This document shows, piece by piece, positions 1-55,139 of a DNA stretch of 64,000 nt; within the stretch, counting starts at the first letter, position 1, and each line of letters starts with the position of its first letter. Below the pieces are notes generated by a model. It was given only the letters and a program-made list of their open reading frames with translations, had not been told where the DNA came from and did not search any database. The position numbers were made by a program, and so were the translations under genes. This DNA comes from Isurus oxyrinchus (Eukaryota), in contig JANJGN010000008.1 in assembly GCA_026770705.1 (NCBI GenBank), positions 68,820,001-68,884,000 of the forward strand, read 5' to 3'.

Positions 1-2814
1 CTGGAACTCCATCACCTCTCCCCGGCAGAGACTTCTTGCAGTATTTCGAATGTAATTGTTGCGCTTGTGGGAATCATCAATCCGTAAACATTTAAAATAA
101 CCACAAGTATGTTTAAAAACCATCCAAGAGGTCCAATGAAATCCCTGAGCATTTTCTTTCAGCTCGTTTTGACATTAGAGTAGAATCCATGGCATGTCAA
201 AGTGAAGAATGCCAGATTGAATTAACTCTGATCTCGTGTGTAAATATGAAACAGAAACCACTTTGCAGCAATATTAAAGTTGTAAGCACTCACTGCCACT
301 GCACTAGGTGGGAACGAGCTTACTCATTTTATGGCATGCCTGTAGCACTGAAATAGTATCTAAGTTAGAAATTGTAGTGAGAGTGCACTACATTATATTG
401 TTAAGAGGATGAACAATATAGAATCCCCAACAGGATTATTTTTAAAGAAGGAACCAGCCTGGTAATTCCTTTGAGAGGAAAATCAGTTGCAGAATTGCAC
501 AAACGTTTTTAACAATTTAAATTAATTATATTATTAAGTTTCAATAATATCGTGCATTAAGTAGGCATTGAACTAATCGTGCCTTAGAAGGAGGATCACA
601 AATCTACAGTAACCTTGCCCTTTTATGCTAATTTTACAGTACAGTAAAAAGATTGAGTGTTGTATATGTTTCAAAGCTCTTCATCTTCAATGAGCCACTT
701 TGAAGCGCCCTGATTATTGTTATGTAGCCAGACAGGCCCAACGCTCCCAACTGTTAACTTATTACACCATCGTCTTTACACCGTTCAAAATGCAATTCGA
801 ATAGCAAGGATCTTAAACTTAATCAGAATTCAATGTACCAATTGAATTTTAGGATTGACTTTTCTTCAGGTTCGACGACCCCCTCCCATCCCCGCAAACG
901 TTTTGATTTGTGTGGCCTCACATTTATGTATAAAGAAAGTTAATTTGAGATGATCATGCGTGTCAGCCCAGTTTTCACAAACCGCACAGCCGAGGTTGGA
1001 TAAGAGCTGCCGTTTGGTATGAGGTTACCCACTCAAATTGTGGGGGTTATATTAGCAATTGGGTGTATTTGTGGAGCAGAAAATTTTACCAACTTGATAC
1101 TAAGTAAATATATGGTGAAATAGTGACATTAATTTTAGTTTCGGCTTCATAAAATCAGCAGTTATTGTAGCTAACATCTTCCACGTGATTGCATATAATT
1201 GGCAAATCGTATCGAAATTATATGTACACATTATAATGAAACCTCTTTCTGTCCTCTGGACTGTCCAAAGTCTGTGGTAAGCAATAGTTTACTTAGGAGA
1301 GACGGGCATTGCAAAATCCCGAAAACAGGAAATCGCTAACTCAATTTTCCAGATGTGAGTTAGCTACTGAATATAAATGTTTGCGCTTGAGGAGCGATTT
1401 TAAAATTCACTTTCTGAAACGATGTATTTGTTGACTAATTTAGTGACACGCCTGTGCAGCTGAATCATCGAGAGAGCTTCTAAATAAGGTCATGTTGAGC
1501 AAAGCCAGGTGAATTATTAGACATCAGCTGTATGTGTTGACCCTTAAAGTAACGCCTAACCAGAAACGTTAGTACATAAACCAGCTGCCGCCTCAAACTA
1601 AATTTATATACTGGTTTCAACATTTCAAATGGTCTGCAGTCTGAATTAGCCATTTTTGGCTGCCAAGAATGTAATGCCATTAGGAAGTATCAGCAGTTAA
1701 AAGCACATCATTGTACGGTAGATAGTGCTGTGGCTGGCAGTTTTTCTTCTGTGATGTCCTTTCATGATCTGCGAGTGATGTTTCAGCGACTTCACTACTC
1801 ATTGAATTCCTAATTAGCCATCACTCGCAAGGTGCCCAGCGCCTGCTTCCAGCAGCACGTTGTACACTGGAATGTGGATATACATTGAGAACATATCTTT
1901 AAACATGTACCCACTGCCCCTGCTACTTGACTGTTTATTAAACGCTCCCTTAGTAACACCTGATCTTCAATTAAGTTCTGTCCGTCCTGTATTAGTGCCA
2001 CGTCAATAGCTGAACTTGCGAGAGTGTTTATTAAGTCGGTCCCTGATGCCCAATTTCTGATCGCATTAATCCAGCTCTAATACCAATGCAGGCGTACCCA
2101 CTGCCAGATTTTAAACGCAATTCCATCATTGGATTACATAGTTTTGTGCTGCCGCTGCATTTTCAAAAACCGTCCTATCTGGTTCTTCTTTCTAAGCGGC
2201 TTAAGATCGTGACCTTGGGTGCTGGCTGATCGAAAGTGGCAGTGACAAAATAACACTTCAATCTGTGAAACAAAACGAAGCAAAGAAAGCCACCACAGGT
2301 TCAATGTCAGAAATTTACTAATATTGCTACATAATATTAACCTGACTGCAGGGTGTATTCGGTGGAACGTATATCAGTGAAAATGCAGCTTTTACATTTA
2401 CACCATCTAATATTCAACATAAACAAAAGCCAAACACAAACTACAATCGGCTTCCATTCGAAGTGTAATCGATCTGATCTTTATGCAAGAACCGGATTCA
2501 AAATGTACACAGAGCAATCTGCAACATGAGTGAATGCCCTGTTTACTCACAAATTCAGATGATAAATATTCCCTTCTCAAGAGCTCATTCGGAGTTAACT
2601 CCGTGCAGAGGGCGGCGGGTGAACTTGACCGTCTATTTCCAATCCAATGTCCATTATTAAAACCGACTTATTTCTCTATCACTTTATCACTTTGGGCTAA
2701 CAGTAAATAGTATTGCGGCGGTTTGGAGCACTCTACAGAAAAGGAGTGCGTGTAATTTTAGTATCAGTAAGACAAAGGGTATATGTAACCTGAGCGAAAA
2801 TGGATTCGCCATAA

Positions 2815-3740
2815 AGGCAACTGCGGTTACCTGTAGGAATGTTTCACACAGAAGGAAATACAGTTACCTGTAGCAATGTTTGATTGATAAGGAAGTGTAG
2901 TTACTTGCAGTAATGTTTGATTGATAACAAAGTGTAGTTACTTGCAGTAACGTCTGATTGATAAGTAAGTGTAGATACTTGCAGTAATGTTTGATTAATG
3001 AGTAAGGTTTGATTGATAAGTAAATGTAGTTACTTGCAGTAATGTTTTATTTATAAGTGTAGTTACTTGCAGTAATGTTGATTGATAAGGAAGTGTAGAT
3101 ACTTGTAGTAATGTTTGATTAATGAGTAAGGTTTGATTGATAAGTAAGCGTAGTTACTTGCCGTAATGTTTGATTGATAAGAAAGTGTAGTTACTTGTAG
3201 TAATGTTCGATTAATAAGGAAATGTAGATACTTGTAGTAATGTTTGATTAATGAGTAAGTGTAGTTACTTGCAGTAATGTTTGATTGATAAGAAAGTGTA
3301 GTTACTTGCAGTAATGTTTGATTGATAAGTAAATGTCGTTACTTGCAGTCATGTTTGATTGATAAGAAAGTGTAGTTACTTGTAGTAATGTTCGATTGAT
3401 AAGGAAATGTAGATACTTGTAGTAATGTTTGATTAATGAGTAAGGTTTGATTGATAAGTAAATGTGGTTACCTGCAGTAATGTTTGATAAGAAAATGTAG
3501 ATACTTGTAGTTATGTTTGGTGAATGAGTAAGGTTTGATGGATAAGAAAGCGTAGTTATTTGCAGTAATGTTTGATTGATAAGTAAGTGTAGTTACTTGC
3601 AGTAATGTTTGATTGATAAGAGCAATAACCTGTGGTAATTTTCTTGGAGAGGTAATTGCATTTAGCTGTAGTAACGCTTCATTAATAGAAAAATGCCGTT
3701 ACCTGTAGTAATATTTAATTGAGGGGAACATGCAATTGCC
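2815..3740. repeat. 37-bp minisatellite (GTAGTTACTTGCAGTAATGTTTGATTGATAAGAAAGT), roughly 20+ copies with recurring variant units
   Basis: Unit starts recur at 3261 and 3298 (period 37); copies degenerate at both edges. Confidence 0.92.
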
Positions 3741-5600: not shown

Positions 5601-5771
5601 GAATCACACATTGCCAGGTACGCATATGGATTGTGATATGGATTGGAGTCCACATTGGATCTAAGGAATTGTGCCTACTGGGGAAAAGCAAACCTTCTTT
5701 CGGCCCTGTTTTTGGACTTTCTCAAACCTTCCCGATCTTTGCCATCAGAGCCAACCCATTTGGCGAAAGCC

Positions 5772-6123
5772 ATGTTCCAGCCTGCGACCAAGAAATGCTT
5801 CACCATCGAGGCTCTGGTAGGCAAAGACAGCTCCTCCACACTTGGGGATGAGCCCCTTCGACCCACAGCTCTGAGATACGCCGATTCGGTGCACGCTTCT
5901 CCCTTTGGGAGCGGCTTTCAGAACGCCGGCAGGACTCTCTACGGCAGCCCCGAGCTCCTGTTCCCGGAGCCGGTGACACACGCGGCCAGCCCCGCTCTCT
6001 CTATGCACCCGGGGAACCCGCACCATCTCCCCGCACAGTCTTTCTTTGCACCGCAGCAGAGAGAAGCGCTGAGTTTTTACCCATGGGTATTAAGGAACAG
6101 ATACCTGGGTCACAGGTTTCAAG
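5772..6123 (+). CDS. emx3: Emx3 homeobox gene, coding exon 1 (MFQPATKKCFTIEALVGKD...FYPWVLRNRYLGHRFQ/G)
   Basis: ATG at 5772 in gccATG context. Emx N-terminal eh1-like motif FTIEALV and YPW-type motif FYPWVLRNR. Ends CAA G|GTAAAT (phase-1 donor at 6124). The N-terminus and RYLGHRFQG resemble remembered teleost emx3 more than Emx1 or Emx2. Confidence 0.93.
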
Positions 6124-7171
6124 GTAAATTGTTAGAATTTTAAGTAATGACAGTTTGTAAGTATCGTATCCAAAGAAAAAGGTATAAAATATTAAATTGC
6201 ATCCGAATAAAACTCACTAACCAACTCTTACTTTACAGATCGGTTAGACAAACTCCTAATCTCAGCTCCTTACATCCTGCGTGTCTACGAGTTATGTTTT
6301 AAACAGCTCTTGCTAGGCAAGGGGTTAGTTTGAAAAAGAAAATCGACCACTTTTACATCGTTAGACTACCGACAATATCCTGTGCAGGCTCTTTATTCGA
6401 TTTTCGATTCTCAAAACATAAACACGTCGTTAAGCATGTAAATCAGGATTATGTAGTAGTGTACAATACCGGTTAGATATGACTGGAACTGAAACCACAG
6501 TTCAGTTCAGATGGAAATTTGAGTTCAAAAGTAAACTCCGCGCGAATGAGTAAGGGTTCAATTTGAACGAAGATCAGGGGATGGTTTAAAAATATAAATG
6601 AGAAGGCTCTGTAATAACCAGGCGTTAGCACCAATTCTAGAAAAGCGCCGCCACTTCACTTGGGATACACTGGGCTGCAGCTCACCTGACTGCCACAGCT
6701 TCCGCCGAGTTCCTGAACTTTGGGGTTCTCACGACCACAGGACTGCCTGGGCTCAATCAGCCGTTGTTGCGGATTTAAATAAGTTTGGAAAGGTGGCCAC
6801 GAACGTTCTGATGCTCCTGTCCTCGGTGGCTCCGAATCCAGTTAGCAAGCTACGGTTCCATCTAAGGCTAACGAAACGCCACACTACGACTAGGAATTTT
6901 TATCTGGAATGAAAACACAGAAAGAGGTTTGAAATGTGCAGGGTGCACCTTGCTTTTGCAAACTGGCCGCACTCCCACTGAATTTAGGAGAGTTGGATTA
7001 ATTTTAAAAAATACCGTTTGCAATCGAGTTTTTTTTTAATGCAAACCGATTTATTTGCTGCAAATTGTCACATGGATCACCTTTGGTACTGTAGTAAAAC
7101 TGCTGGTTTAATATGTGTTTACACTCCAGGCAAAGGCGCACCTTGTTTGCGGTTCACAGTCTCTCTAGGTC

Positions 7172-7308
7172 CTGAACACAAACCGAGCTGGAAATACTCA
7201 GCAGGTAGTGGCAGCCTCTGTGGAGAGAGAAACTGAGTTAACGTTTCAGGTGGATGACCCTTCGTCGTGTTTTCATTCCAGATTTCCAGCAATCGCAGTA
7301 TTTGCTTT
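7172..7308 (-). mobile_element. Short Penelope-type terminal-repeat fragment with a decayed hammerhead-like motif
   Basis: gctggaaatactcagcagg...gagttaacgtttcaggtggatgacccttcgtcg is homologous to the 21.8 kb and 52.9 kb elements. Imperfect flanking repeat agtctctctagg / agtctctaag. Confidence 0.65.
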
Positions 7309-20499: not shown

Positions 20500-21420
20500 C
20501 GAAGCATTCATATAGACACCAGCACAGAGTGAGGCGCACAGAGACAACCTCCAAAATATACGGACTCAAACATACAAACGCATAGACACACACACACACA
20601 CACACACACACACTGACTAAATAGACATTGACATACACATACAGGCCCTTAGAAACACACACACAAACACACACACAGGAATCCACTGACTCGTACATAC
20701 AGATCCTTAAACACAGAGACAAAGGTACAGACATAGACTGACGCACACACAAATACTGATATAAATAAACATTGACATACACATACAGGCCCATAGAAAC
20801 ACACACACACAAATATTAATATAAATGTACATTGTCATACACATATAAACCCATAGACACACACAACACAGATACAGAAATGAACTGACATACAGGTCCA
20901 TAGACACGAACACAAATAGAGGAATACATTGACTAATGGAGATCCACACACACACACACACATACACAGAGAAATTCACTGACTCATACATACAGAGTCT
21001 TAAACACAAACAGAGACACGTGTATAGATATAGACTGATTGTCACACACAAATACTGATGTAAATATACATTGACATACACATATAGGCCCATAGAAACA
21101 CACACACACAGAAATTCACTGAGTCGTACAGACAGATCCTTAAGCAGAGATACATGTACAAGCTTAGACTGACTCTCACACCCAGATCCACGGTAACAAA
21201 TATACAGACACAGGCACAGAAATACACTGACTCCAACATACAAATCCATAGATACAACACATGCTCACAGACACAAGGACAGGAATTAATGGACACAGAT
21301 CTATAGATACAGGGACTCATAGGTACAGATCCATAAACACAAACACACAAACACCCAGGCATAGTGGCGGAAGTAAACTGACTCATACATACAGATCCAT
21401 AATCTGATACCGGAACAGAA
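20500..21420. repeat. Degenerate CA-rich complex tandem repeat with (CA)n tracts in intron 2
   Basis: Recurring cattgacatacacatacaggcccatagaaacacacacac and attcactgactc blocks; source of V/C/Y-rich spurious ORFs. Confidence 0.85.
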
Positions 21421-21796
21421 TTATACATCATTTCATTCACATTATTTCCGAATCTTCAAAACGGATTGAATAATCCAGTGTAGAGAATCCTATTGTGGAA
21501 CGTACAAGTTTAAAATAAATGACTTATGTTTTAATACATTTACAAAGAAATCAGTTTGCAGGTGTGTTGTGGGCCTTTAACTGTAACACTAGAATTCAGA
21601 TTATCAATGTTTGACAGTGAACCCCGGATCAGTACTATATCAAACCACCGTTCATGGCTATTCACTCCCTCTGTTTATAGACTTTAATCACGTCATTTTC
21701 ATTCTGGGTAGACCCATTTTTTTTCTGACTTGCCTTATATGAACTGGATGCCAAATCACTTCACACTCATTCTACGGTGGGCTAGAAAAAGGAGGA

Positions 21797-22001
21797 TAAA
21801 AACAAAAAACTGCGGATGCTGGAAATCCAAAACAAAAACAGAATTACATGGAAAAACTCAGCAGGTCTGGCAGCATCGGCGGAGAAGAAAAGAGTTGACG
21901 TTTCGAGTCCTCATGACCCTTCCACAGAACTGTCAACGTCAACTCTTCTCCGCCGATGCTGCCAGACCTGCTGAGTTTTCCAGGTAATTCTGTTTTTGTT
22001 T
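21797..22001. mobile_element. Penelope-type short insertion with inverted (fold-back) arms and a 14-bp target-site duplication
   Basis: TAGAAAAAGGAGGA at 21783-21796 and 22002-22015. Arms at ~21829-21902 and ~21935-22002 are near-perfect reverse complements. Hammerhead-like motif on the - strand at 21893-21931. Confidence 0.85.
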
Positions 22002-25000
22002 TAGAAAAAGGAGGAAATGGCTTTCGGTTCACTTGCATTATAAGGAATTCTAACTCAGATGCCCAAACCCATTTGAGGCCCAGTTGTACTTTCCAGTGTT
22101 TAGTACGGATCAAGGACGCATCTGTCAATCGAAGGTCTTTTATATCTAAGTATTACAAATCGAACCATTGGCCCATTAATACTTTCTCACATTTATTTTT
22201 GTTCTTGGTCCATTAATACTTTATCGTTTATTTTTGTTAAGTATCCGTACAATAATTTTGTCTAGAATTGTTGCCAGGGAAAACGAATCGTACTGGATTA
22301 CAGATATTACAAGCGGGTTATCTGTATTAGGAGGGACAGAAAATCTCGCTGAGATTTCACAACAATTTGTTCAGTTGTAAGGAATTGGTTAGATGGTTAG
22401 TGTACCTAGTAGTAACGATCAAAATGAAAGGATAGCTCGACGCCACATGCAACAATGAAGAAGGGCATGTTTGTCCTAGTGCTGTTTCCGTGGTGAGGCG
22501 GAAGAATAATCGACTGCCCCATTCGTTGTAGAAGACTTAGGTACAGGTACAGGAGTCGCTCAAAAAATAATACCCAAAAATAAAATTGCGCCCCTCCCGT
22601 CACGGATTTTACATTTGGAATACAGCCAACCCAGAATCACTCTGAATGTTTGCTTTAAAGACCCGACGTTAGTGGAAGTGAAACAACAGCATGTTCAAAC
22701 AGGATAATAAAAGTTGAACTTTTCCAGTGTCAGTGGACTCAAAGGCCAACAGTAAAGCGGGGCTGCGCTGACCAGATATCGCATTCACTTTCTGTCCTGG
22801 TTAGTTAGAAAGGGACAATATTTGGAGTTTTCTTTTTAAGAGAACGAATTAAGTCCCCAGTGCCTAATATAGTAGGGCGTATTAAAACGGCAATGTTTAC
22901 GGGTCTGTTCTGGTCGAGGATTTACGGAACAGACAGACCTTTAAAGGCACAGTTTGTCATGTGCAGCCGCGTTTGCAAACTCGGCTACGACTTATAGCTA
23001 TTTGAAAAATATACATAATGCAAAAAAAACCCAATCAAACCACGACGTTCAGCCCCGAGGCTAACAATGTGCTGGTTGTTTCATCGGCATTCTGTCCAAG
23101 TGCAGTCATTCATTTTAATTTTGTTAACGTGCCACCGATTAAGCAAAATGCTGCAACACTTCAGAACGAAAATAGCTCACAGCTTTTCAAAACTTCCCCT
23201 GTGCGCGCATTGGAGCTCATTCCTTTAAAGAAAAACTCCCTTAATGCTGCCTTGCAGCATCAGTTCCAGGCTATACTGTCTAGAGCATGACCTGAGGTAC
23301 ATACTGTGTCATATATCGTACAGATATCTTACACCCGCCGGGTAGTATGCCGCAAAGAACTGGGACATAGGCATGTTTTTGGATATTGGACCAGGGACGT
23401 TCGGGTTCAAGAAGGAGCAATGGGAGAAATGGGAAATGAGAGAAATGGGCTTTCTTGCCTGCAATTGGTTTATGTTTTAATCCGCTATTCTGGGGCAAGT
23501 AAAATATATATAAAAAAAACTGGAATTCCGTTAGAAGGTGAACGGATACAATTGGTAGAGATAGAAATGTCTTTTTACTGGGTATTAATTTACCCTCTCT
23601 TTAGGCTGAGTATGTACCCCAGGGGAATAGAAATGTCCGCTCACCAGTGTGTGCCAACAACCTCAGAGACTGATGCAAGGGCACCGTCAGGCAACTCACC
23701 AGCCGGGGCTTTGCTCACCCTACTGATTGCTAACGGATTCACCTTACAGCCTATTGCAGATATATGCCACTTCAGATATGCCGAAGTGACTGAGCCGCTG
23801 AGGTGGCTTCGATTTGGGTTAATTCTGGGAGCGGGAGGCCGATCAACTTTTAGCGAGCGAAAAAAAAGGTGTTCGAGTTTTGCATGTGTGCTGGGGATTC
23901 AAAGAAGTCCTCGGTGCAGTGTGTGAAATAAAGATCCCTTCTGTAATGAAAGTAAGACGGGGATGTGGCTAATCCCTTCACTATTCACTCGATGCAATGG
24001 TAATGTGCCCTTCTTCAAACAAAACGCCGGGGTTCCCCGCAGTTCAGTCTCTTTAGAACAGGGACACTGCAGAGGGCGGGGGGTGGCAGAGACCCTGTGA
24101 GTGAATAGAAGAAAGCAGAGTTAAAAGGCACAGGGGTGGGAGAATTTAGTTTTGGTCGGGTTTGACAGAAATTTATCCCAGAAATTCCGTGTGTCATAAA
24201 AGGTATTTGGTAGGAGAGAAGGTTGAAAGTAGATTGAATAAAGTTGCAGGGCCCTTGTAAAATCACCTGCTCCTGCCAGGGAGTCCACTCTCAGCACACG
24301 GTGTTTCGTTCCCATCCTTCAATAGTACTGCTCGATGTTATTTCAGCCCTGGGCTTCCACCAAGTTCCATGTCCAAATATTACTGTATATTTTCCTATCC
24401 AGTTGGCTTGACCTTTGCCAGAACCACGGCTGAGAAAGATCAGAAAATAGTATTTAGGGAAACGCTGGTTACAGGAACTCGAGTTCAAAGTGAAGACTCG
24501 TCACCCGTCAACCCAACTGACTAAAATGTCTGTCTGCGTTCAACAGCTGAGCGATTCCCCTAAAATAACAACCAATAATTGTGCACGTGTACCCTCAATC
24601 TTTTTAGAACTAGGCAGAAAATATAATTAAAAGGAAAATGGTTTGGGAATGTTCCAAACGTGTGCATTTATTGAGCATTGTGAACGCCTCAAAATCTCAA
24701 AGTCCTTTATAGAGAATGAACACGAAATGTGTCATTCAATCCACACAAACAACTTTAATAAATGTGTAATTACATGTTTGTTAATGGGTTCAATATTTAT
24801 ATGTTTTATCTATATATATATCTCATCTATACTAGTCCATTCTAAATAGTTCAGACACACAACGGATTGTGCAGTTTTTCTTTGGTCCTCCATATGTACC
24901 TTGTTTTCTAAAAAAAACCCGGCCTGCACATTTATTCTGTGGTACATCTGAGAAAATAGCAAAGAAAGGATTTATTTTGGGGAGCGCAGCCGGTCCCTCT

Positions 25001-30373: not shown

Positions 30374-30478
30374 AAGCAAAATACTGCAGATGCAGCAAAC
30401 TTGAAATAAAAACAGAAAATGCTGGAAATACTCAGCAGGTCAGGCTCCCTCCAGATGCTGCCTGACGTGCTGAGTGAG
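30374..30478. mobile_element. Short Penelope-type fold-back fragment with a 7-bp flanking direct repeat
   Basis: aaagcaaaatactgcagatgc...aaaacagaaaatgctggaaatactcagcaggtcaggc; inverted arm gcctgacgtgctgagt; AGCCTGA at 30367-30373 and 30479-30485. Confidence 0.7.
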
Positions 30479-30679: not shown

Positions 30680-31170
30680 GAGACACAAACGCATAAACAA
30701 ACACAATCTCACACAAAATGCAGCCACAAACACAATCTCGCAGAAAACGCAGACACAAACATGGTCTCAAATGAAATACAGACACAAACACAATCTCACA
30801 CAAAACGCAGCCACAAACACAATCTCGCAGAAAACGCAGACACAAACATGGTCTCAAATGAAATACAGACACAAACACGGTCTCACACAAAACGCAGACA
30901 CGAACAGTCTCACACGAAAAGCAGACACAAACACGGTCTCACACAAAACACAGACACAAACACTATTTCACACAAAACACAAACACTATTTCACTCAAAA
31001 ACACTCACTTTCATGCAAAAACACCCAAACTCAATCTCAGACAAAACATACACAAATACAATATGACACAATCTCACACAACATGTGCAGACACGAACTC
31101 ACACAACAACAAACATTCTCACACAGCACACACACACAAGCGCACAGTCATGCATAACATATACACAAAC
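30680..31170. repeat. CA-rich tandem array, 29-bp monomer with an 87-bp higher-order unit
   Basis: acacaatctcacacaaaa recurs at 30701 and 30788 (87 = 3 x 29). Confidence 0.85.
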
Positions 31171-31172
31171 AC

Positions 31173-31881
31173 AGGGCTGAATTTTATGGGGTGCCATGGT
31201 CCACACCCCCTGGATAAAAAGTTGGGTTGGGGGGGAGGGGGGGGGGGTGTTGGGGTAACAGCATTAATTGCTTTAAGGTGAGAATTCTGCCCCTACCTTG
31301 GTAGGAAGCTCGCTTTAGAGATCTGTGGTTGATCAGAATGGCCAGCAACTCTTTAGTCCCAGCAGTGCCAACCAGGAGTGCCAGATTCTGTGGGGATTAT
31401 AGGCTGTCCCACTACACTAGAGAACCCAGGTAAATCTGGGGTTGGGGCTCTCTGTGAGGGATGTAGGGGATTGAGGAGGTGGGGTGGGGAGTGGGGAGAG
31501 GTTCAAATGGCCGGCAGGAGGATTAAAGGGGGAGCTAACTTTAGGGGGAGGGTGCTTCTGATAGGCCCAGGGGGCTTCCAAAGGAGAATTACCCTTTGCC
31601 TGATGCCAGCTCGCACAGCTGAAACTGCCAGGTTTCCTGCATGGCATGGTTATGAGTAAACTAGCAGCAGCAGCAGACTGAGGCCTTTTAGAAGCATTAA
31701 TCGACCCCTTAAGGGCCTCAATATGCCCAAGAGTGGGTCACCTGCCCATAGCCTCCACCACCCTCCATAGAATTTCAGACAGGTCACGAGGGGTGGGTGG
31801 GCAGTGGGCAGGCAGCCTGCTGGATCTTATGAGCTCCCCATGTCTTCAAAACCACCAACAGAGGAGCCCAAAATCCAGCTC
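31173..31881. mobile_element. MITE-like non-autonomous DNA element (possibly PIF/Harbinger-related)
   Basis: Starts gggctgaatttt and ends aaaatccagctc (imperfect terminal inverted repeats). GC-rich interior interrupts CA-rich sequence on both sides. Confidence 0.5.
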
Positions 31882-36594: not shown

Positions 36595-38372
36595 AGTTAG
36601 GTATTCAGGTAGTGGTGTAGTAATCCAGAGACCAAGAGTAATGATGTAGGGACCCAGGTTCAAATTTGAATTCAATAAAAATCTGGAATTAAAGGTCTAA
36701 TGATGACCATGAAACCATTGTTGATTGTTGTAAAACCCCATCTGGTTCACTAATTTCCTTTAGGGAAGGATAGCTGCTGTCCTTACCTGATCTGGCCCTA
36801 ACCTGATCTGGCCCTTAGCTACATTTGGCCTACATTTGACTCCAAATCTACAGCAATGTGGTTGACTCTTAACTGCCCTCTGAAATGACATAGCAAGCCA
36901 CTCAGTTATATCAAACTGCTAAAAACAAGTCAGTAAGGAATTTGAGTATTGCTGAAAAAGAGACACATCTAAGCTTTTCATCTTGCACTCATCAGGACAC
37001 TTCACAAGAATACCAACATAAGGGGAAAATAATGGGCAGGGTACAGATCGTACCCAACCAGCCCGTGCTTGCAAAACTCAAAACAAGTGTCCAACATCAT
37101 CTCAGTTCCAGGACATCACTGTGGGAGTTCCTCTGGGTAGTGTTCTAGGCCCAACCATTTTCAGCTGCTTCATCAATGATCTTCCTTCCAACATAAGGTC
37201 ACTGATGCTTGCACAATGTTTAGCTCCATTCGCGCCTTCTCAGATACTGAAGCAGTACATGTCCAAATGCAGCAACACCTGGACAATATCCAGGCTTGGG
37301 CTGACAAGTGGCAAGTCACATCCATGCCACACAAGTGCCAGGCAATGACCATCTCCAACAAAAGAGAATCTAACCATCACCCCTTAACATTCAGTGGCAT
37401 TACCATAGTGGAATCCCCTTGGCCCAACCATCTTTAGTTGCTTCATCAATGACCTTCCTTCCATCATAAGGTCAGAAGTGGGGATGTTCGCTGATGATTG
37501 CACGATGTTCAGCACCTTTTGCGACTCCTCAGATACTGAAGCAGTCCATGTCCAAATGCAGCAAGAACTGGACAATATCCAGGCTTGGGCTGACAAGTGA
37601 CAAGTAACATTCACACCATACAAGTGTCAGGCAATGACCACCTCCAACAAAAGAGAATCCAACCACCCTTGATGTTCAATGGCATTACCATCACTGAATC
37701 CCCCATTATCAACATCCTGGGGGTTACCACTGACCAGAAACTGAACTGGACTAGCCATATAAATACTGTGGTTACAAGAGCAGGTCAGAGGCTAGGAATC
37801 GTGCAATGAATAACTCATCTCCTGACTCCCAAAGCCTGTCCACCATTTACAAGGCACAAATCAGGAGTATGTTGGAATACTCCCCACTTGCCTGGATGAG
37901 TGCAGCTCCCACAACACTCAAGAAGCTGGACATCTTCCAGACAAAGCAGATTGCTTGATTGGCACCACATCCACAAACATTCACTCCCTCCACCACCGAC
38001 GCACAGTACTAGCAGTGTGTGCCATCTACAAGATGCACTGCAGGAATTCATCAAGGCTGCTTAGACAGCACCTTCCAAACCCATGAACAATACCATCTAG
38101 AAGAACAAGGGCAGCAGATAGATGGGAACACCAGCACATGGAAGGTCCCCTCCAAGCCATACACTGACTTGGAAATATATCACCATTCCTTCACTGTTGC
38201 TGTGTCAAAATCCTGGAACTCCCTCCCAAAAGCACAGTGGGTCTATCTACACCACATAGACTGCAGCAGTTCAAGAAGGCAGCTCACCACCACCTTCTCA
38301 AGGGCAACTAGGAATGGGCAATAAAATGCTGGCCCAGGGACGCCCACATCCTGTGAATGGATAAAAAAATAA
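36595..38372 (+). mobile_element. Internally deleted CR1-group LINE: tRNA-like head, RT 3' half with a 273-bp tandem duplication, A-rich tail
   Basis: Head at 36605-36930 is homologous to the SINEs at 27.2 and 57.5 kb. RT motifs GVPLGSVLGPTIFSCFINDLP, MFADD and INILGVTTDQKLNWTSHIN. Ends gggcaataaaatgctggcc...aaaaaaataaa. Confidence 0.85.
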
Positions 38373-38375
38373 AGA

Positions 38376-42330: not shown

Positions 42331-44621
42331 GTGCTCAGTTTAGACAGCTCATGAGAAGACCATTGCACCAGAAGGCACTGAGCTACAGGCATAAAAGCTC
42401 CTGATAATGCCTGCTCAGACTTGTAACTTGAAACTACCAGAACAGGTCTGATTACCTCCATTTACAGAACAAAGCTTAGCAACCTTCACTCCCTCACCCT
42501 TGTCAATAAAGATTGTCTAAAACCAACATCTGCCCAAGGACATGACATAAACATCAAGTTTCTTCCCCTCAGTGATTTTCCTCCAAGAATCATCACTGGA
42601 GTAAATGGCTGCCTTGAACAAATGCACCCATTTTTGTCTGACTGTGATTTCCTTGGTTGAATCTCCATGAATGATAAAGCACAAAAATAACTGCACATTC
42701 AACATTACATTGATGGAAAATTACAAACCAGTCTCCAAAGAACAGAATTGAACCTTAGCCCAGAAATGGTCAAAGACAAACAGGCCTCCATCAATAATTC
42801 AGCAAAACAAATGTACATTCAAGCATCAGATAGTTGTGGCAAGGCACAAAACAGCCTCCAGGAAATACTACAAGCAAAGCAAGCGCCCTTTGAAATTGAC
42901 ATACAGCCAAACAGTCTATCAACTGCTTCCTAAAACCATATATCTCTCTGGTGCCTAGAACTGCTGTTCTGTTGCTGTGTTCACCAGTGCCATGAGGACC
43001 AGAAAGAAGAGACGTGATGCGCATTTCCTGGACTGAGGTTGTTCTCAACTCATCACACCTGGCTCTTGGTATGGAGCTGCTACTGGCTGCATCTCTGGAG
43101 GAAGCTCCAAGGCAGCCTGCCAAAATTCAGTGGCATGATATTCTCAGAGGGAAGGCCAGAGCCCTGGCATATGCTGCTTGTATTGAGAAATGGCAGGAGC
43201 AGGCTTCAACTGATGCCTTTGCACTTGGCCTTTGATCTGTGGCTCCAGTTATCAGATGGTATGATGGCAGCCACTAAATCCTGGAAGATCCGAATCATTG
43301 AATTAACCAAGGACTGGAAAGCACATTTAAAGGTGCTTCCCATTATGTGCAGCTTTCAAACTATGCTTCCATGGAAGTGGTGGTGCTAATTGTTTCCTAG
43401 CTTCACCTTTGGGGATCTCCTGAAGACCTTAATGCAACTGCCTTTTGCTGTATTGGTTCTGACATCTCTGTGATGTTGCTGCAAATCAGAGCGGTAGACT
43501 CTGCAGCCACACCTGTGACTAGCCACAAACCAATGGGAGATCATTCCCAAGTACTCACCTCTCACGATGCATCTTTTGAGACATGTAACCATGTGGTCGA
43601 GATCTCAGATCTCTGAAGTCATTGGCCGCCTTACAGTCAACCTCAACGGAGAAGCAGTCACATCCTCCCTAACTTGCCACTCTAATGGGTCCCCCACGCT
43701 TGGTGTTTCGCTTGGTGAGCTTTCCTGGCTCCTGCTAACTAGTTTCCTAAATTGCTAGTCTCTGTGCTGGTGCCTGGAACAGGTGTGATGAATGATATAG
43801 ATATGAAGTCAGGAGGACTTGGCATTCCCAAAGATGGTGAACTCTGGGGGAGAACAGAGGAAAAAGGCTCCTGTGTTTAGTTTCCTCTTCTTTGTCCTCT
43901 TCATCTGGGCCTTGTGGAGGCTCAGGATCTTTTTTCCCAAGCTGATTCCCCTTTTCGTCCTCCCCCTACTTCCTCAATTTCCTCCTGCTGCTTTGTAGGA
44001 TTTGCAAAGTAGGTTTCCTCTAAATTCGATTTATCCCATTTGCCTTAATCTTTAAAAATCTTACAAATGGAGCTCATTCAAAGCTTTCAGAAAATTTAAC
44101 CTTGAGACTACCTGCATTCATAAATTATTTATCTCTTCAAGGAATTTCTGTAGACATTTGAAGCAGCATTTGCTGCTTTTCTAGCCACCCTGTGGCCCCT
44201 GTGTTCTTTAAATGAACAGTAATAGCAAACTAAAAAATACCCCAGGTTATTTTTTGTACTGTAGATGTTAAACTAACTAATCAGTGACTCCCAGCTTCCT
44301 GTTTTACTCCTTTTCTGAATACTAGTATAGCAGATGCTAATCTCTAATCATCAGGTAAAGCTCATTGATTGATAAAATTTCCAGGATTTTTAAGAACATT
44401 GACCACAGTCTCAGAAAATCCTTTTAATTTTCTTGCTGCCTTCTCACCAAGTTACCATCTGCACATTTAACACATTTTTACTGTTTATGGTTGTTGTATT
44501 CCTAAGGATGGTCATTGGATCTATCATTTGTCTCCACTTCATGTAGTAATGTGCAGATAATACTGCTAACATTTCAACTTGATAAATTTTTTAAAGAGCC
44601 CATTACAAGCAGCAAGAGACA

Positions 44622-45398
44622 TTTGCACCACACAAGTGCCAGGCAATGAACGTCTCCAATGAGAGACTATCTAACTATTTCCCCTTGACATTCCATGGCA
44701 TTACTATTGCTGAACCCCACTCCATCAAAATCTTAGGTGTTACCATTGACCAGAAACTTAACCTGACCGGCCATAAAAATATTGTGAATACAAGAGCAGG
44801 TTAGAGGTTGAGAATTCTCTGGAATTTGAATAACTCACTTCCTGACTTTGCAAAGCCTGTCCATCTACAAAGCACCAGTCAGGAGTGTGGCAGAATACTC
44901 TCTACTTTCCTGGAATGTGCGCAACTCCAACAACACTCAAGAAGCTCGACACCACCCAGGACAAAGCAGCCCACTAAAGGGCACCACATCCACCACCTTA
45001 ATTCACCCCCTCCATGCCTGATGCACAGTGGAACAAGTGTGTACCATCTACAAGATGTATTGCAACAACTCCTTAAGTCTCCTTTGACAGCACCTTCCAC
45101 CCTGTGACCTCTATTACCTAGAAGGTCAAGGGCAATAGATACATGGAAACACAACCATCTGAATTTCCCTCCAAGCCACACACTATCCTGACTTGAAATT
45201 ATATCACCGTTCCTTCACTGTCACTGGGTCAAGATCCTGGAACTCCCTCTCTAACAGCACGATGGGTATACCTATACCACATGAACTGCAATGGCTCAAG
45301 AAGGTGTTTCACCATCATCTTCTCAAGGGAATTTAGGGATGGGCAACAAATGCAGACCTTGCCAGTGATGCTCACGTTCCGCGTACAAGTAAGAAAAA
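44622..45398 (+). mobile_element. 5'-truncated CR1-group LINE, same family as 37.1-38.4 kb
   Basis: Runs from cacaagtgccaggcaatga...gaccagaaactta through the tail agggatgggcaacaaatgc. Confidence 0.85.
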
Positions 45399-52479: not shown

Positions 52480-52797
52480 TCTCCCCCAGTTTTTGGCTGT
52501 GTTTTACTGTTGTATATACTATCTCTATTGTAATTAAACCTGTATATTAGTTTGAGTTGGAATGTAACCATCTAATATTCTTGTATTCACCAAGTTTGGA
52601 AAATGTAGTGGGTTTCACACAGCTTCTGGTGCACTATACTGACACAGGATGATAATTGGTCATCTTGGGCATGTTACTTCAGACATGCCAAGCAAAAAGA
52701 TGCTGTTTTGGTTCATAGGAAATTCTTTCTGTTTAAGAAAATAACCTTCTCTGCTTTGAGCAAGACAAGAGTGTTGGGAGGCAGTCTGGGCCTTAAC

Positions 52798-53017
52798 TTC
52801 TATCACTGCTTGTTTGTCTACACAAGCACCTCTGTCTCTCTCTCTGTCTCCCCCCCCCCCCCACCCCACACCTTAAACCAGCTTATATTTCAACTCTTTC
52901 CTGGACTCGAAATCAAGTTCTGTCGAAGGGTCATGAGGACTCGAAACGTCAACTCTTTTCTTCTCCGCCGATGCTGCCAGACCTGCTGAGTTTTTCCAGG
53001 TAATTCTGTTTTTGTTT
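52798..53017 (+). mobile_element. Penelope-type short insertion with an 11-bp target-site duplication and a hammerhead-like motif
   Basis: TGGGCCTTAAC at 52787-52797 and 53018-53028. The 3' ~100 bp is nearly identical to the 21.8 kb element. Confidence 0.85.
52916..52954 (+). ncRNA. Minimal type-I hammerhead-ribozyme-like motif (variant core)
   Basis: AGTT-CTGTCGA-A-GGGTC(ATGAG)GACTC-GAAAC-GTC-AACT: stem I AGTT/AACT, stem II GGGTC/GACTC, palindromic ACGT stem III, GUC cleavage triplet. Core is CUGUCGA rather than CUGANGA. Confidence 0.6.
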
Positions 53018-53569
53018 TGGGCCTTAACAGTGGCAGGTTCATGTATACAGGTCATAGAGATGGCATGTGTGTGAAATGGAGATTTCGGAGTGATAGAGAG
53101 ATCACACTCTCTTAATACAAGAGCCAGGTTAATGCTAGGGAATGTAGGAGAGATTTAATAGAAAGTGTAGTGGGAACTTTACACTACATTTAACTTTATC
53201 TCAGAGTGGTTAATGAGAAAATGCAGCATGACTTTATTTTAAATTTAATCCATGGTATTTGGATCAGGGAGGCCTTGATGAGGCAAGGCGGATAGAATAT
53301 GCATAGATAGCCATAAAAACAAGTTGAATCTAGCAGACATTTTGTCCATCATGCTTTGACATTATACTATCATGATCATAAAATTGTGTGGCACACATGT
53401 ATCTGATTGGCTCAAATTTTGTATTCATAGCAACAAATCACAATTAAGGCAGAGGGAAGGCACCAAACACCAAGTGTAAAACAAAAATAAAAACCAACAA
53501 CTGCGATTTTAAAAATAGCTTGGAATCAGATCACAGGTTATCAAGCATGCTACATTTTAATGGACATAA

Positions 53570-53850
53570 ACAAGGGCAGCAGATAGATGGGAACACCTTC
53601 ACCTGGAAGATCCCCTCCAAGTCACTCACCACCCTGACTTGGAAATATATTGCCGTTCCTTCACTGTCACTGGGTCTGGGTCAAAATCCTGGAACTCCCT
53701 TCCTAACAGCACTGTGGGTGTATCTACACCACATGGACTGCAGCGGTTCAAGAAAGCAGCTCACCACCACCTTCTCAAGGGCAATTAGGGATGGGCAATA
53801 AATGCTGGCCTAGCCAGCAACGCTCACACCCCATGAATGAATAAAAGAAG
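53570..53850 (+). mobile_element. 3' end fragment of the CR1-group LINE
   Basis: caagggcagcagatagatgggaacacc...gggatgggcaataaatgctggcctagccagc...atgaatgaataaaa is near-identical to 38105-38370. Confidence 0.85.
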
Positions 53851-55139
53851 AAATTGCAATCGTATCTGCAACTCAAGGTTTGGTTCACATCACGTATGAG
53901 ACAACGCCAAGCTAGACAGTGAACAAAACGTCACACATCTGTCATAGTGATGGAAGAATCCATCATTAAGTTGGTGTACTTTGCTAGCAAGAATTACTAC
54001 TGCAAAATTATTGATGAAGAAGAAAAATGCAATTAAAAAAAATGTTATTGGCCTGAACTTCTGGCCAGTGGCAATGATGCCTGCATTGGCCCATTTTTTT
54101 CTAGGATCTTCTGATCAGCAAAATGTGCAGCACAGCGTCCCCTTCCTAACTCCAGCAAGCAGAGGCGGGAGAACGAGAGGGCATGCCCAATTTTTATGGC
54201 ACTAGTTGCTGCATTCGGCTAAGTTTAAAGGTCCAGTCTTTGAGTATGGGTTAGTGAATGAATGAGTAAATGAGTGAGTAGGTAGGTGCATGAGGTAGGT
54301 GGATGGGTGAACGGGTAGGTAGGTGAAGTGGGTGATGTGAGTAGGTGGGTGAGTAGGATTAGCATTATTTAAAGGGTCAGGCACTCAATTTACATCTTAG
54401 ATGATTTTTAAGAGCTTTTTTGTTGCAAGGTGTCTAACATAATCTGGAGATTTTTTTGGCGATGATGTGAGTGCCTGGATTTACTGGGAGTGTTGCTGCA
54501 TGCCCTCATGGAGGACAAAGGAGTAGGTGACTGACAACACAAAGGTTGTAACAGGTATGGGGTTGCAATAATGGTGCATCTGGGTCTTCAGCATGATTGA
54601 GAGATGGAGCCGAGGCTGCAGAGAGAGCAAGCTCTGCCCTATGCTCTTTGCTAGCTTGGAGCTGGATTCCTTTGTGCTCCTTAATGGTGACAGGAGGCTA
54701 CCTGGCAGGCCAGTCAATGCATCTAGGTGTGCATGCCCATCAGTGCTCTCTTGTATACCATTCCGTTAAGGTCCTGTGCAGCAGAACTCATCTTTAACCT
54801 CACCTTCTGGTGAGCTGTCAAACAATGCTTTCCGCTGGCCTAGCTGCAGCCCAGTGACTCACCACACACTGATGCCAACTCTATACTAGCCTCCCATGCA
54901 TGTTCAGTGCCAACATTTGAGCTGGTGGATGTAGGTGTCAGATCAATTGATGGGGCCTCTAATTCTGCACCTTTCCCTTCCTCCTTGGGTTGCTGTGGCA
55001 GGGCAGGGGGGCAGTTCTTGGTCTGGAAACAGGGGAACTCAAAGAGGAAGGTTGGTGTGAAGGAAGTGGAGTTGGGATGGGAAGCAAGGGATAACCTCAT
55101 GGCTTGGTATATCCCTCACTCTACCATTACTATCAATCC

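Follow-up and report, generated by a model that had tools for sequence, protein, structure and literature searches.

An insert in a shark genome is almost certainly the truncated end of an autonomous Penelope-like element (PLE), and the minimal hammerhead ribozyme that it carries has U in place of A at core position 6 (A6U). Our preferred reading, at a probability of about 55%, is that this ribozyme is attenuated, that its fold is still selected, and that cutting is dispensable for most insertions. The family multiplied with one core letter altered and the rest of the motif intact, so cutting is likely to be weak and unneeded for jumping. The locus itself, positions 52787 to 53028 of the 64-kb window (the whole stretch of DNA analysed), is an unremarkable truncated copy. 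The genome as a whole contains dated subfamilies on either side of a single core substitution, plus intact young source elements. It therefore offers matched natural A6 and U6 RNAs for relating cleavage rate to retrotransposition.

The insert and its parent element

The insert is bracketed by an exact 11-bp repeat, TGGGCCTTAAC, which has no third occurrence on either strand of the 64-kb window; both copies are present, so the target-site duplication around a non-coding insert stands as it was first described. Homology to a full-length element spans 52797 to 53018, and the element therefore stops at both repeats, with a 1-nt overlap on each side (Table 1).

Table 1. Features of the insert and of related copies in the window
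Feature	Position	Strand	Remarks
Left target-site duplication	52787..52797	+	11 bp; final base matches element too
5'-truncated pseudo-LTR (pLTR) end of EN+ Penelope-like element, youngest subfamily (U6C7)	52798..53017	+	pLTR alignment
TATA-like box	52884..52890	+	starts 32 nt upstream of first base of stem I
Minimal type-I hammerhead	52916..52954	+	predicted cut after 52950 (C17)
Stem I	52916-19/52951-54	+	AGUU/AACU
Core CUGUCGA	52920-26	+	U6 at 52923; unpaired A next
Stem II	52928-32/52938-42	+	GGGUC/GACUC, 5-nt loop
GAAAC-GUC	52943-50	+	C17 at 52950
Conserved segment reaching the first of the family's two 3' ends	52955..53017	+	putative RT start site
Right target-site duplication	53018..53028	+	11 bp
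Sister insertion	21783..22015	-	minus arm with tail, plus inverted truncated plus arm 21935-22002
Sister hammerhead, CUGUGGA	21893-21931	-	begins exactly at stem I
Sister's own target-site duplication	21783-21796 and 22002-22015		14 bp
Old decayed relative	7188..7264	-	A retained at core position 6

Six genome regions with closely spaced motif matches were retrieved, among them a tandem array, L031, in which three motifs are spaced 3.35 kb apart and each follows the end of an ORF, giving units of ~3.35 kb. One unit has a 926-aa open frame with an RVT_1 match (E 7e-8, above the cut-off) plus, at its C terminus, a GIY-YIG match (E 9e-4, below the curated cut-off), and the element bears the same U6 motif. 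Read directly from the translation, the linker that joins RT to EN is CPRKRCNTC, of the form CX4CxxC, and the EN has CSQC...H...H (CCHH). Both the linker and the CCHH arrangement are those of Neptune and Nematis, and the tandem pseudo-LTRs of L031 are those of EN+ PLEs. The optional 30-40 bp tail and the inverted truncated arms of that group are present as well. In a sample of 99 copies picked via a downstream anchor, 3' ends are bimodal, at +31..36 in 37 and at +61/+66 in 40, the two points being ~32 nt apart, and 25 copies are flagged as inverted.

Apart from a CT/C run, the insert differs from the pLTR of L031 by 2 substitutions; it corresponds to the 3' 220 bp of such a pLTR. Its 3' end, at +34, falls at the first of the two family points, and the ~32-nt tail is missing. 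The alignment and this end identify the insert as a truncated copy from an autonomous family. The sequence-only reading was right about a Penelope origin, and the RT plus GIY-YIG frame that it proposed to look for at full-length copies lies beside the U6 motif in the L031 tandem; its non-autonomous family is contradicted by the same data. That the insert comes instead from a retrozyme or SINE-like family with a 220-bp unit of its own can hardly be correct: such a source would account for a non-coding, hammerhead-bearing insert with a target duplication, but not for the match to an autonomous pLTR, for variable 5' ends that in 65 of 99 copies reach past the pile-up zone described below, or for the ORF in the family tandems examined. 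Likewise, the tandem ORF-less units of non-LTR retrozymes were not seen among the tandems examined; this copy is solitary. It is near certain that the insert belongs to an autonomous PLE. Two other copies (L195 and L249) resemble template jumps: in each, an internal stretch of the ORF abuts the pLTR immediately above the hammerhead.

The minimal type-I hammerhead with CUGU was correctly recognized from the letters, with every part that had been listed lying within 52916 to 52954. It has the features of PLE hammerheads: type-I topology, an extra base after A9, G10.1-C11.1, a palindromic 15.2-16.2, GAAA, and UH. The core departs from the CUGANGA of minimal PLE hammerheads in having U6. A check against Rfam models gave no hammerhead match in the 64-kb window, the only hit at E<=1 being a miRNA model (E 0.58). 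The ViennaRNA optimum for the monomer forms stem II without stem I (-7.3 vs -5.9 kcal/mol for stems I and II together), and in a longer context the hammerhead pairs have a probability of at most 0.03; the fold is thus supported comparatively, not energetically. Stem changes inside the U6 lineage are one-sided only. Two-sided changes in stem II (AGGUC/GACCU) occur as individual cases in distant A6 families (L413 and L414). The AG that precedes the core resembles a splice acceptor; among the sequencing contigs listed, none showed a spliced joint at this place.

Upstream of the motif, the TATA-like box would act as a promoter. Its distance from stem I is 29 nt in the S2 consensus, and older copies such as L084 and L086 have, by eye, TATAAAT ~31 nt upstream. 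In the youngest subfamily, GGACTCGAAATCAA has been gained directly upstream of stem I (window 52885-52915); it nearly duplicates the hammerhead's 3' half. At the same spot, older subfamilies show a run of pyrimidines that terminates in AG.

The sister copy at 21.9 kb, an inverted two-arm insertion, does share CUGU as claimed, although its full core is different, with G at N7. The window also holds an old inverted Penelope end relic without a hammerhead (30380-30475).

Spread and age of the A6U change

When positions 6 and 7 are left free, a pattern of 31 letters has 78,939 exact matches in the 4.98-Gb genome. Position 6 is A in 138 of these and C or G in 1,751, which leaves ~77,050 (~98%) with U6; among the first 100 matches listed, 98 have U6. 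The suggestion that CUGU is family-wide rather than the product of random decay is therefore confirmed. Older subfamilies retain canonical CUGA, with 16,089 loose matches vs 42 for the control, and the older loop accompanies a non-A6 core in 7,550 matches, mostly U6 among the 100 listed.

The subfamily consensus series, built from 231 motifs, starts at A6A7, passes to A6U7 and then to U6U7, still with the old loop, and ends at U6C7, the form now present. The 16 copies of the first U6 subfamily show 4.4% non-CpG divergence, vs 0.9% for the 15 copies of the youngest, a value that supports the recent mobility first proposed. The ORF consensuses of these two subfamilies differ at 67 of 1,091 sites, including 43 of 362 third positions. 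Of 371 motifs, 59 had 400 or more ORF bases aligned and entered an ORF tree. The tree has the shape of a ladder in which most A6 copies branch near the base, and the A6/U6 boundary is poorly resolved. Two old A6 copies sit among U6 copies in this tree, and one A6 copy is nested within the youngest U6 copies. U6 is derived and lineage-fixed. Since 5 among the first 100 C/G6 matches (1,751 in all) have G, G6 is estimated at ~88 copies, close to the A6 count, so A6 revertants look neutral. Four sequencing runs under three organism labels list no alternative letter at 52923, which suggests that U6 at this position is common to the sampled labels.

CUGCUG accounts for ~84 of the first 100 C/G6 matches listed. 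By a rough estimate this C6U7 form (L418-L432) has ~1,470 copies, roughly a tenth of the U6U7 number. An amplified C6 subfamily was considered but lacks support: several different upstream and downstream backgrounds are represented among the 17 C6U7 copies printed. For the excess of C6U7 over neutral decay, a mutation hot spot and repeated C6 source elements are the candidates.

Constraint, 5' ends and the activity of the U6 ribozyme

Between the first and the youngest U6 consensus, none of the 21 core and stem I positions changed, compared with 4 of the 7 free positions (Fisher P=0.0017, for a single lineage and with position classes taken from the known consensus). Stem II has changed at 1 of 10 positions since A6U, from A-U to G-U, with pairing kept. 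The changes include H17 U to C, after which the triplet remains cleavable. In the 79 of 99 young copies that span the motif gap-free, variants seen at least 4 times are confined to N7, CpG sites and the base that ends the loop. Measured against background, the constraint is modest: the probability of 0 changes in 21 is 0.07 at the rate of ORF third positions and 0.03 at that of the upstream pLTR. Only 7 sites (10.6%) changed in the 66 nt downstream of the motif, and such slow change means that constraint covers the whole region. Neutral decay since A6U, with the core left unchanged by chance and by general conservation of the terminal region, can appeal to these background probabilities and to the conserved downstream segment; it is nonetheless very unlikely, in view of the contrast between free and core positions within the same 39 nt and of a sole stem II change that preserves its pair. 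Taken together, a single lineage provides moderate evidence that selection still maintains the hammerhead pattern.

The 5' ends of the 99 copies lie at the scissile bond in none, downstream of it in 2, inside the motif in 5, at its 5' edge in 27 and beyond it in 65. The 27 fall in 13 nt around the edge of stem I (P 3e-12 vs an even spread). Filtering the whole genome for breaks close to the bond returned 339 copies over seven positions, and the first 100, assigned by eye, are distributed as 11, 8, 32, 8, 14, 21 and 6, with the 32 at the bond. Separate counts gave 69 at the bond vs 168 over the next four positions, a 1.6-fold excess (P 5e-4). At an estimated filter pass rate of ~0.22, bond ends number ~300, or ~0.3% of about 90,000-100,000 copies (85,632 counted). 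Copies ending at the bond are mostly inversions, many with microhomology. Of the 7 simple bond-site truncations checked, one has a clean junction; 3 share 1-3 nt with the duplication, and in the other 3 no duplication abuts. The 1.6-fold excess may reflect real cleavage, as a hint only.

The ~0.3% of ends at the bond, compared with 27 of 99 at the stem I edge, indicates that many templates retained an intact 5' hammerhead, and inserted copies appear to have been templated mostly by uncut RNA. Cleavage followed by re-ligation into circles would likewise leave the bond free of ends. By eye, older A6 subfamilies mostly read through the site too, so read-through is not specific to U6. When the bond test was applied to the old A6 families, ~45 of 100 cases by eye were another element inserted in the TTAA palindrome at the cut site, and these swamped any comparison of A6 and U6 footprints. 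This element has GGGCNGAATTTT-like ends and frequently occupies that palindrome in old subfamilies (L323-L352); an end resembling the GGGCNGAATTTT type lies at about 31175-31290 of the window.

The position of the TATA-like box, 29-32 nt upstream, and the pile-up of 5' ends point to an RNA start at stem I. In the mechanism that we propose, transcription would begin at the first base of stem I, 52916. The element protein would nick the target and prime reverse transcription internally, at a point ~68 or 100 nt downstream of the cut site. The cDNA would then traverse the uncut hammerhead, often running off the 5' end of the RNA; alternatively, a read-through transcript would let it extend into the pLTR upstream and so yield a copy such as the one in the window. 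Any cleavage would be slow and would require a dimer or help from a protein, because stem III consists of the ACGU palindrome only. In older mutagenesis, A6U is reportedly harmful. A search of the available literature for a measured A6U cleavage value found none, and published A6C values serve here as a stand-in: a natural A6C hammerhead has a kobs <0.1/min (PMC3088659, in the part available) and, in the available text of PMC7151607, is far slower in Mg2+ than in Mn2+, with good activity in Mn2+.

Three other readings concern how much activity the U6 motif retains. It might be catalytically dead and kept as a 5' leader, a protein-binding site or a core promoter element, which we regard as somewhat unlikely. 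Its placement at the putative transcription start fits this, as do the lack of any pull back to A at position 6 (138 A6 against ~88 G6), the preference of ViennaRNA for other folds in context, and the multiplication of Naiad PLEs without canonical hammerheads, as the available portion of PMC8557442 describes it. A dead motif would not, however, be expected to confine its changes exactly to catalytically free positions, H17 among them, nor would ends be expected to be even slightly over-represented at the bond. Conversely, the U6 ribozyme could be effectively active in vivo, either dimeric or assisted by the element protein, and tandem transcripts would then be processed to give units or circles. 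Cleavage by the anole hammerhead requires protein in the available account (PMC11167929), a transcript of tandem units carries two motifs, conservation extends to the ACGU palindrome, and there is the 1.6-fold excess at the bond. Set against the rarity of bond ends beside the stem I pile-up, and with only 1 clean case among the simple truncations, this seems quite improbable. Between these lies a tuned-down but functional U6 hammerhead at the RNA 5' end, whose slow cutting would spare a capped template and would have aided the dominance of the lineage while the core stayed selected; we consider this doubtful. The reading that we prefer remains that of an attenuated ribozyme with a selected fold and largely dispensable cutting.

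Relation to known systems

Literature searches, with limited coverage of subscription papers, found no natural U6 core and no shark Penelope hammerheads. Metazoan hammerheads in PLE pLTRs are described as minimal, of low activity and in need of dimers (Cervera and de la Pena 2014, PMC4209133). Those motifs resemble the present one in their pLTR location, short stem I, a base left unpaired between 9 and 10.1, G10.1-C11.1, palindromic 15.2-16.2 without a loop III, and mostly solitary truncated copies. In contrast to U6 here, all of their rows examined have A6, which the descriptor required, and the only core change in the text examined of that paper is U3-A8. Descriptors built on CUGANGA overlook tens of thousands of motifs in this one genome.

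The parent element is like the EN+ PLEs Neptune and Nematis, as characterized in the available part of Craig et al. 2021 (PMC8557442), in its single frame of RT and C-terminal GIY-YIG, CX2-5CxxC linker, tandem pLTRs, inverted truncated arm and optional 30-40 bp tail; unlike them, it has a non-canonical core and 5' ends that cluster on the motif's first base. The role of the hammerhead in Penelope elements is stated there to be unclear. Anolis Poseidon PAc (Frangieh et al. 2024, PMC11167929) shares, in the text available, two internal RT starts that define the tail, and unprocessed RNA as the main template. Hammerhead core mutants of that anole element had no effect on insertion in vitro. PAc belongs to a different clade, with a canonical core and an ORF that starts inside the hammerhead, whereas the first in-frame ATG here is ~170 nt downstream of the motif start. 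The Bcep176 A6C hammerhead (PMC3088659, PMC7151607; available parts) also has a natural pyrimidine at core position 6. It is a single phage motif with C6 and a measured low activity; the U6 motif occurs in tens of thousands of copies and is known from sequence alone. Animal non-LTR retrozymes, in the available part of bioRxiv 10.64898/2026.07.22.740005, are likewise PLE-derived and non-coding with a type-I hammerhead, but form tandem ORF-less units, unlike the solitary truncated pLTR here.

Elsewhere in the window, another dispersed repeat recurs at 37145-38373, 44605-45375 and 53569-53853, with 75-84% identity, and tandem arrays lie at 2826-3722, 20538-21402 and 30683-31173. At both its start and its end, the open frame at 5637-6143 (+) is similar to what we take to be the first exon of an Emx homeobox gene.
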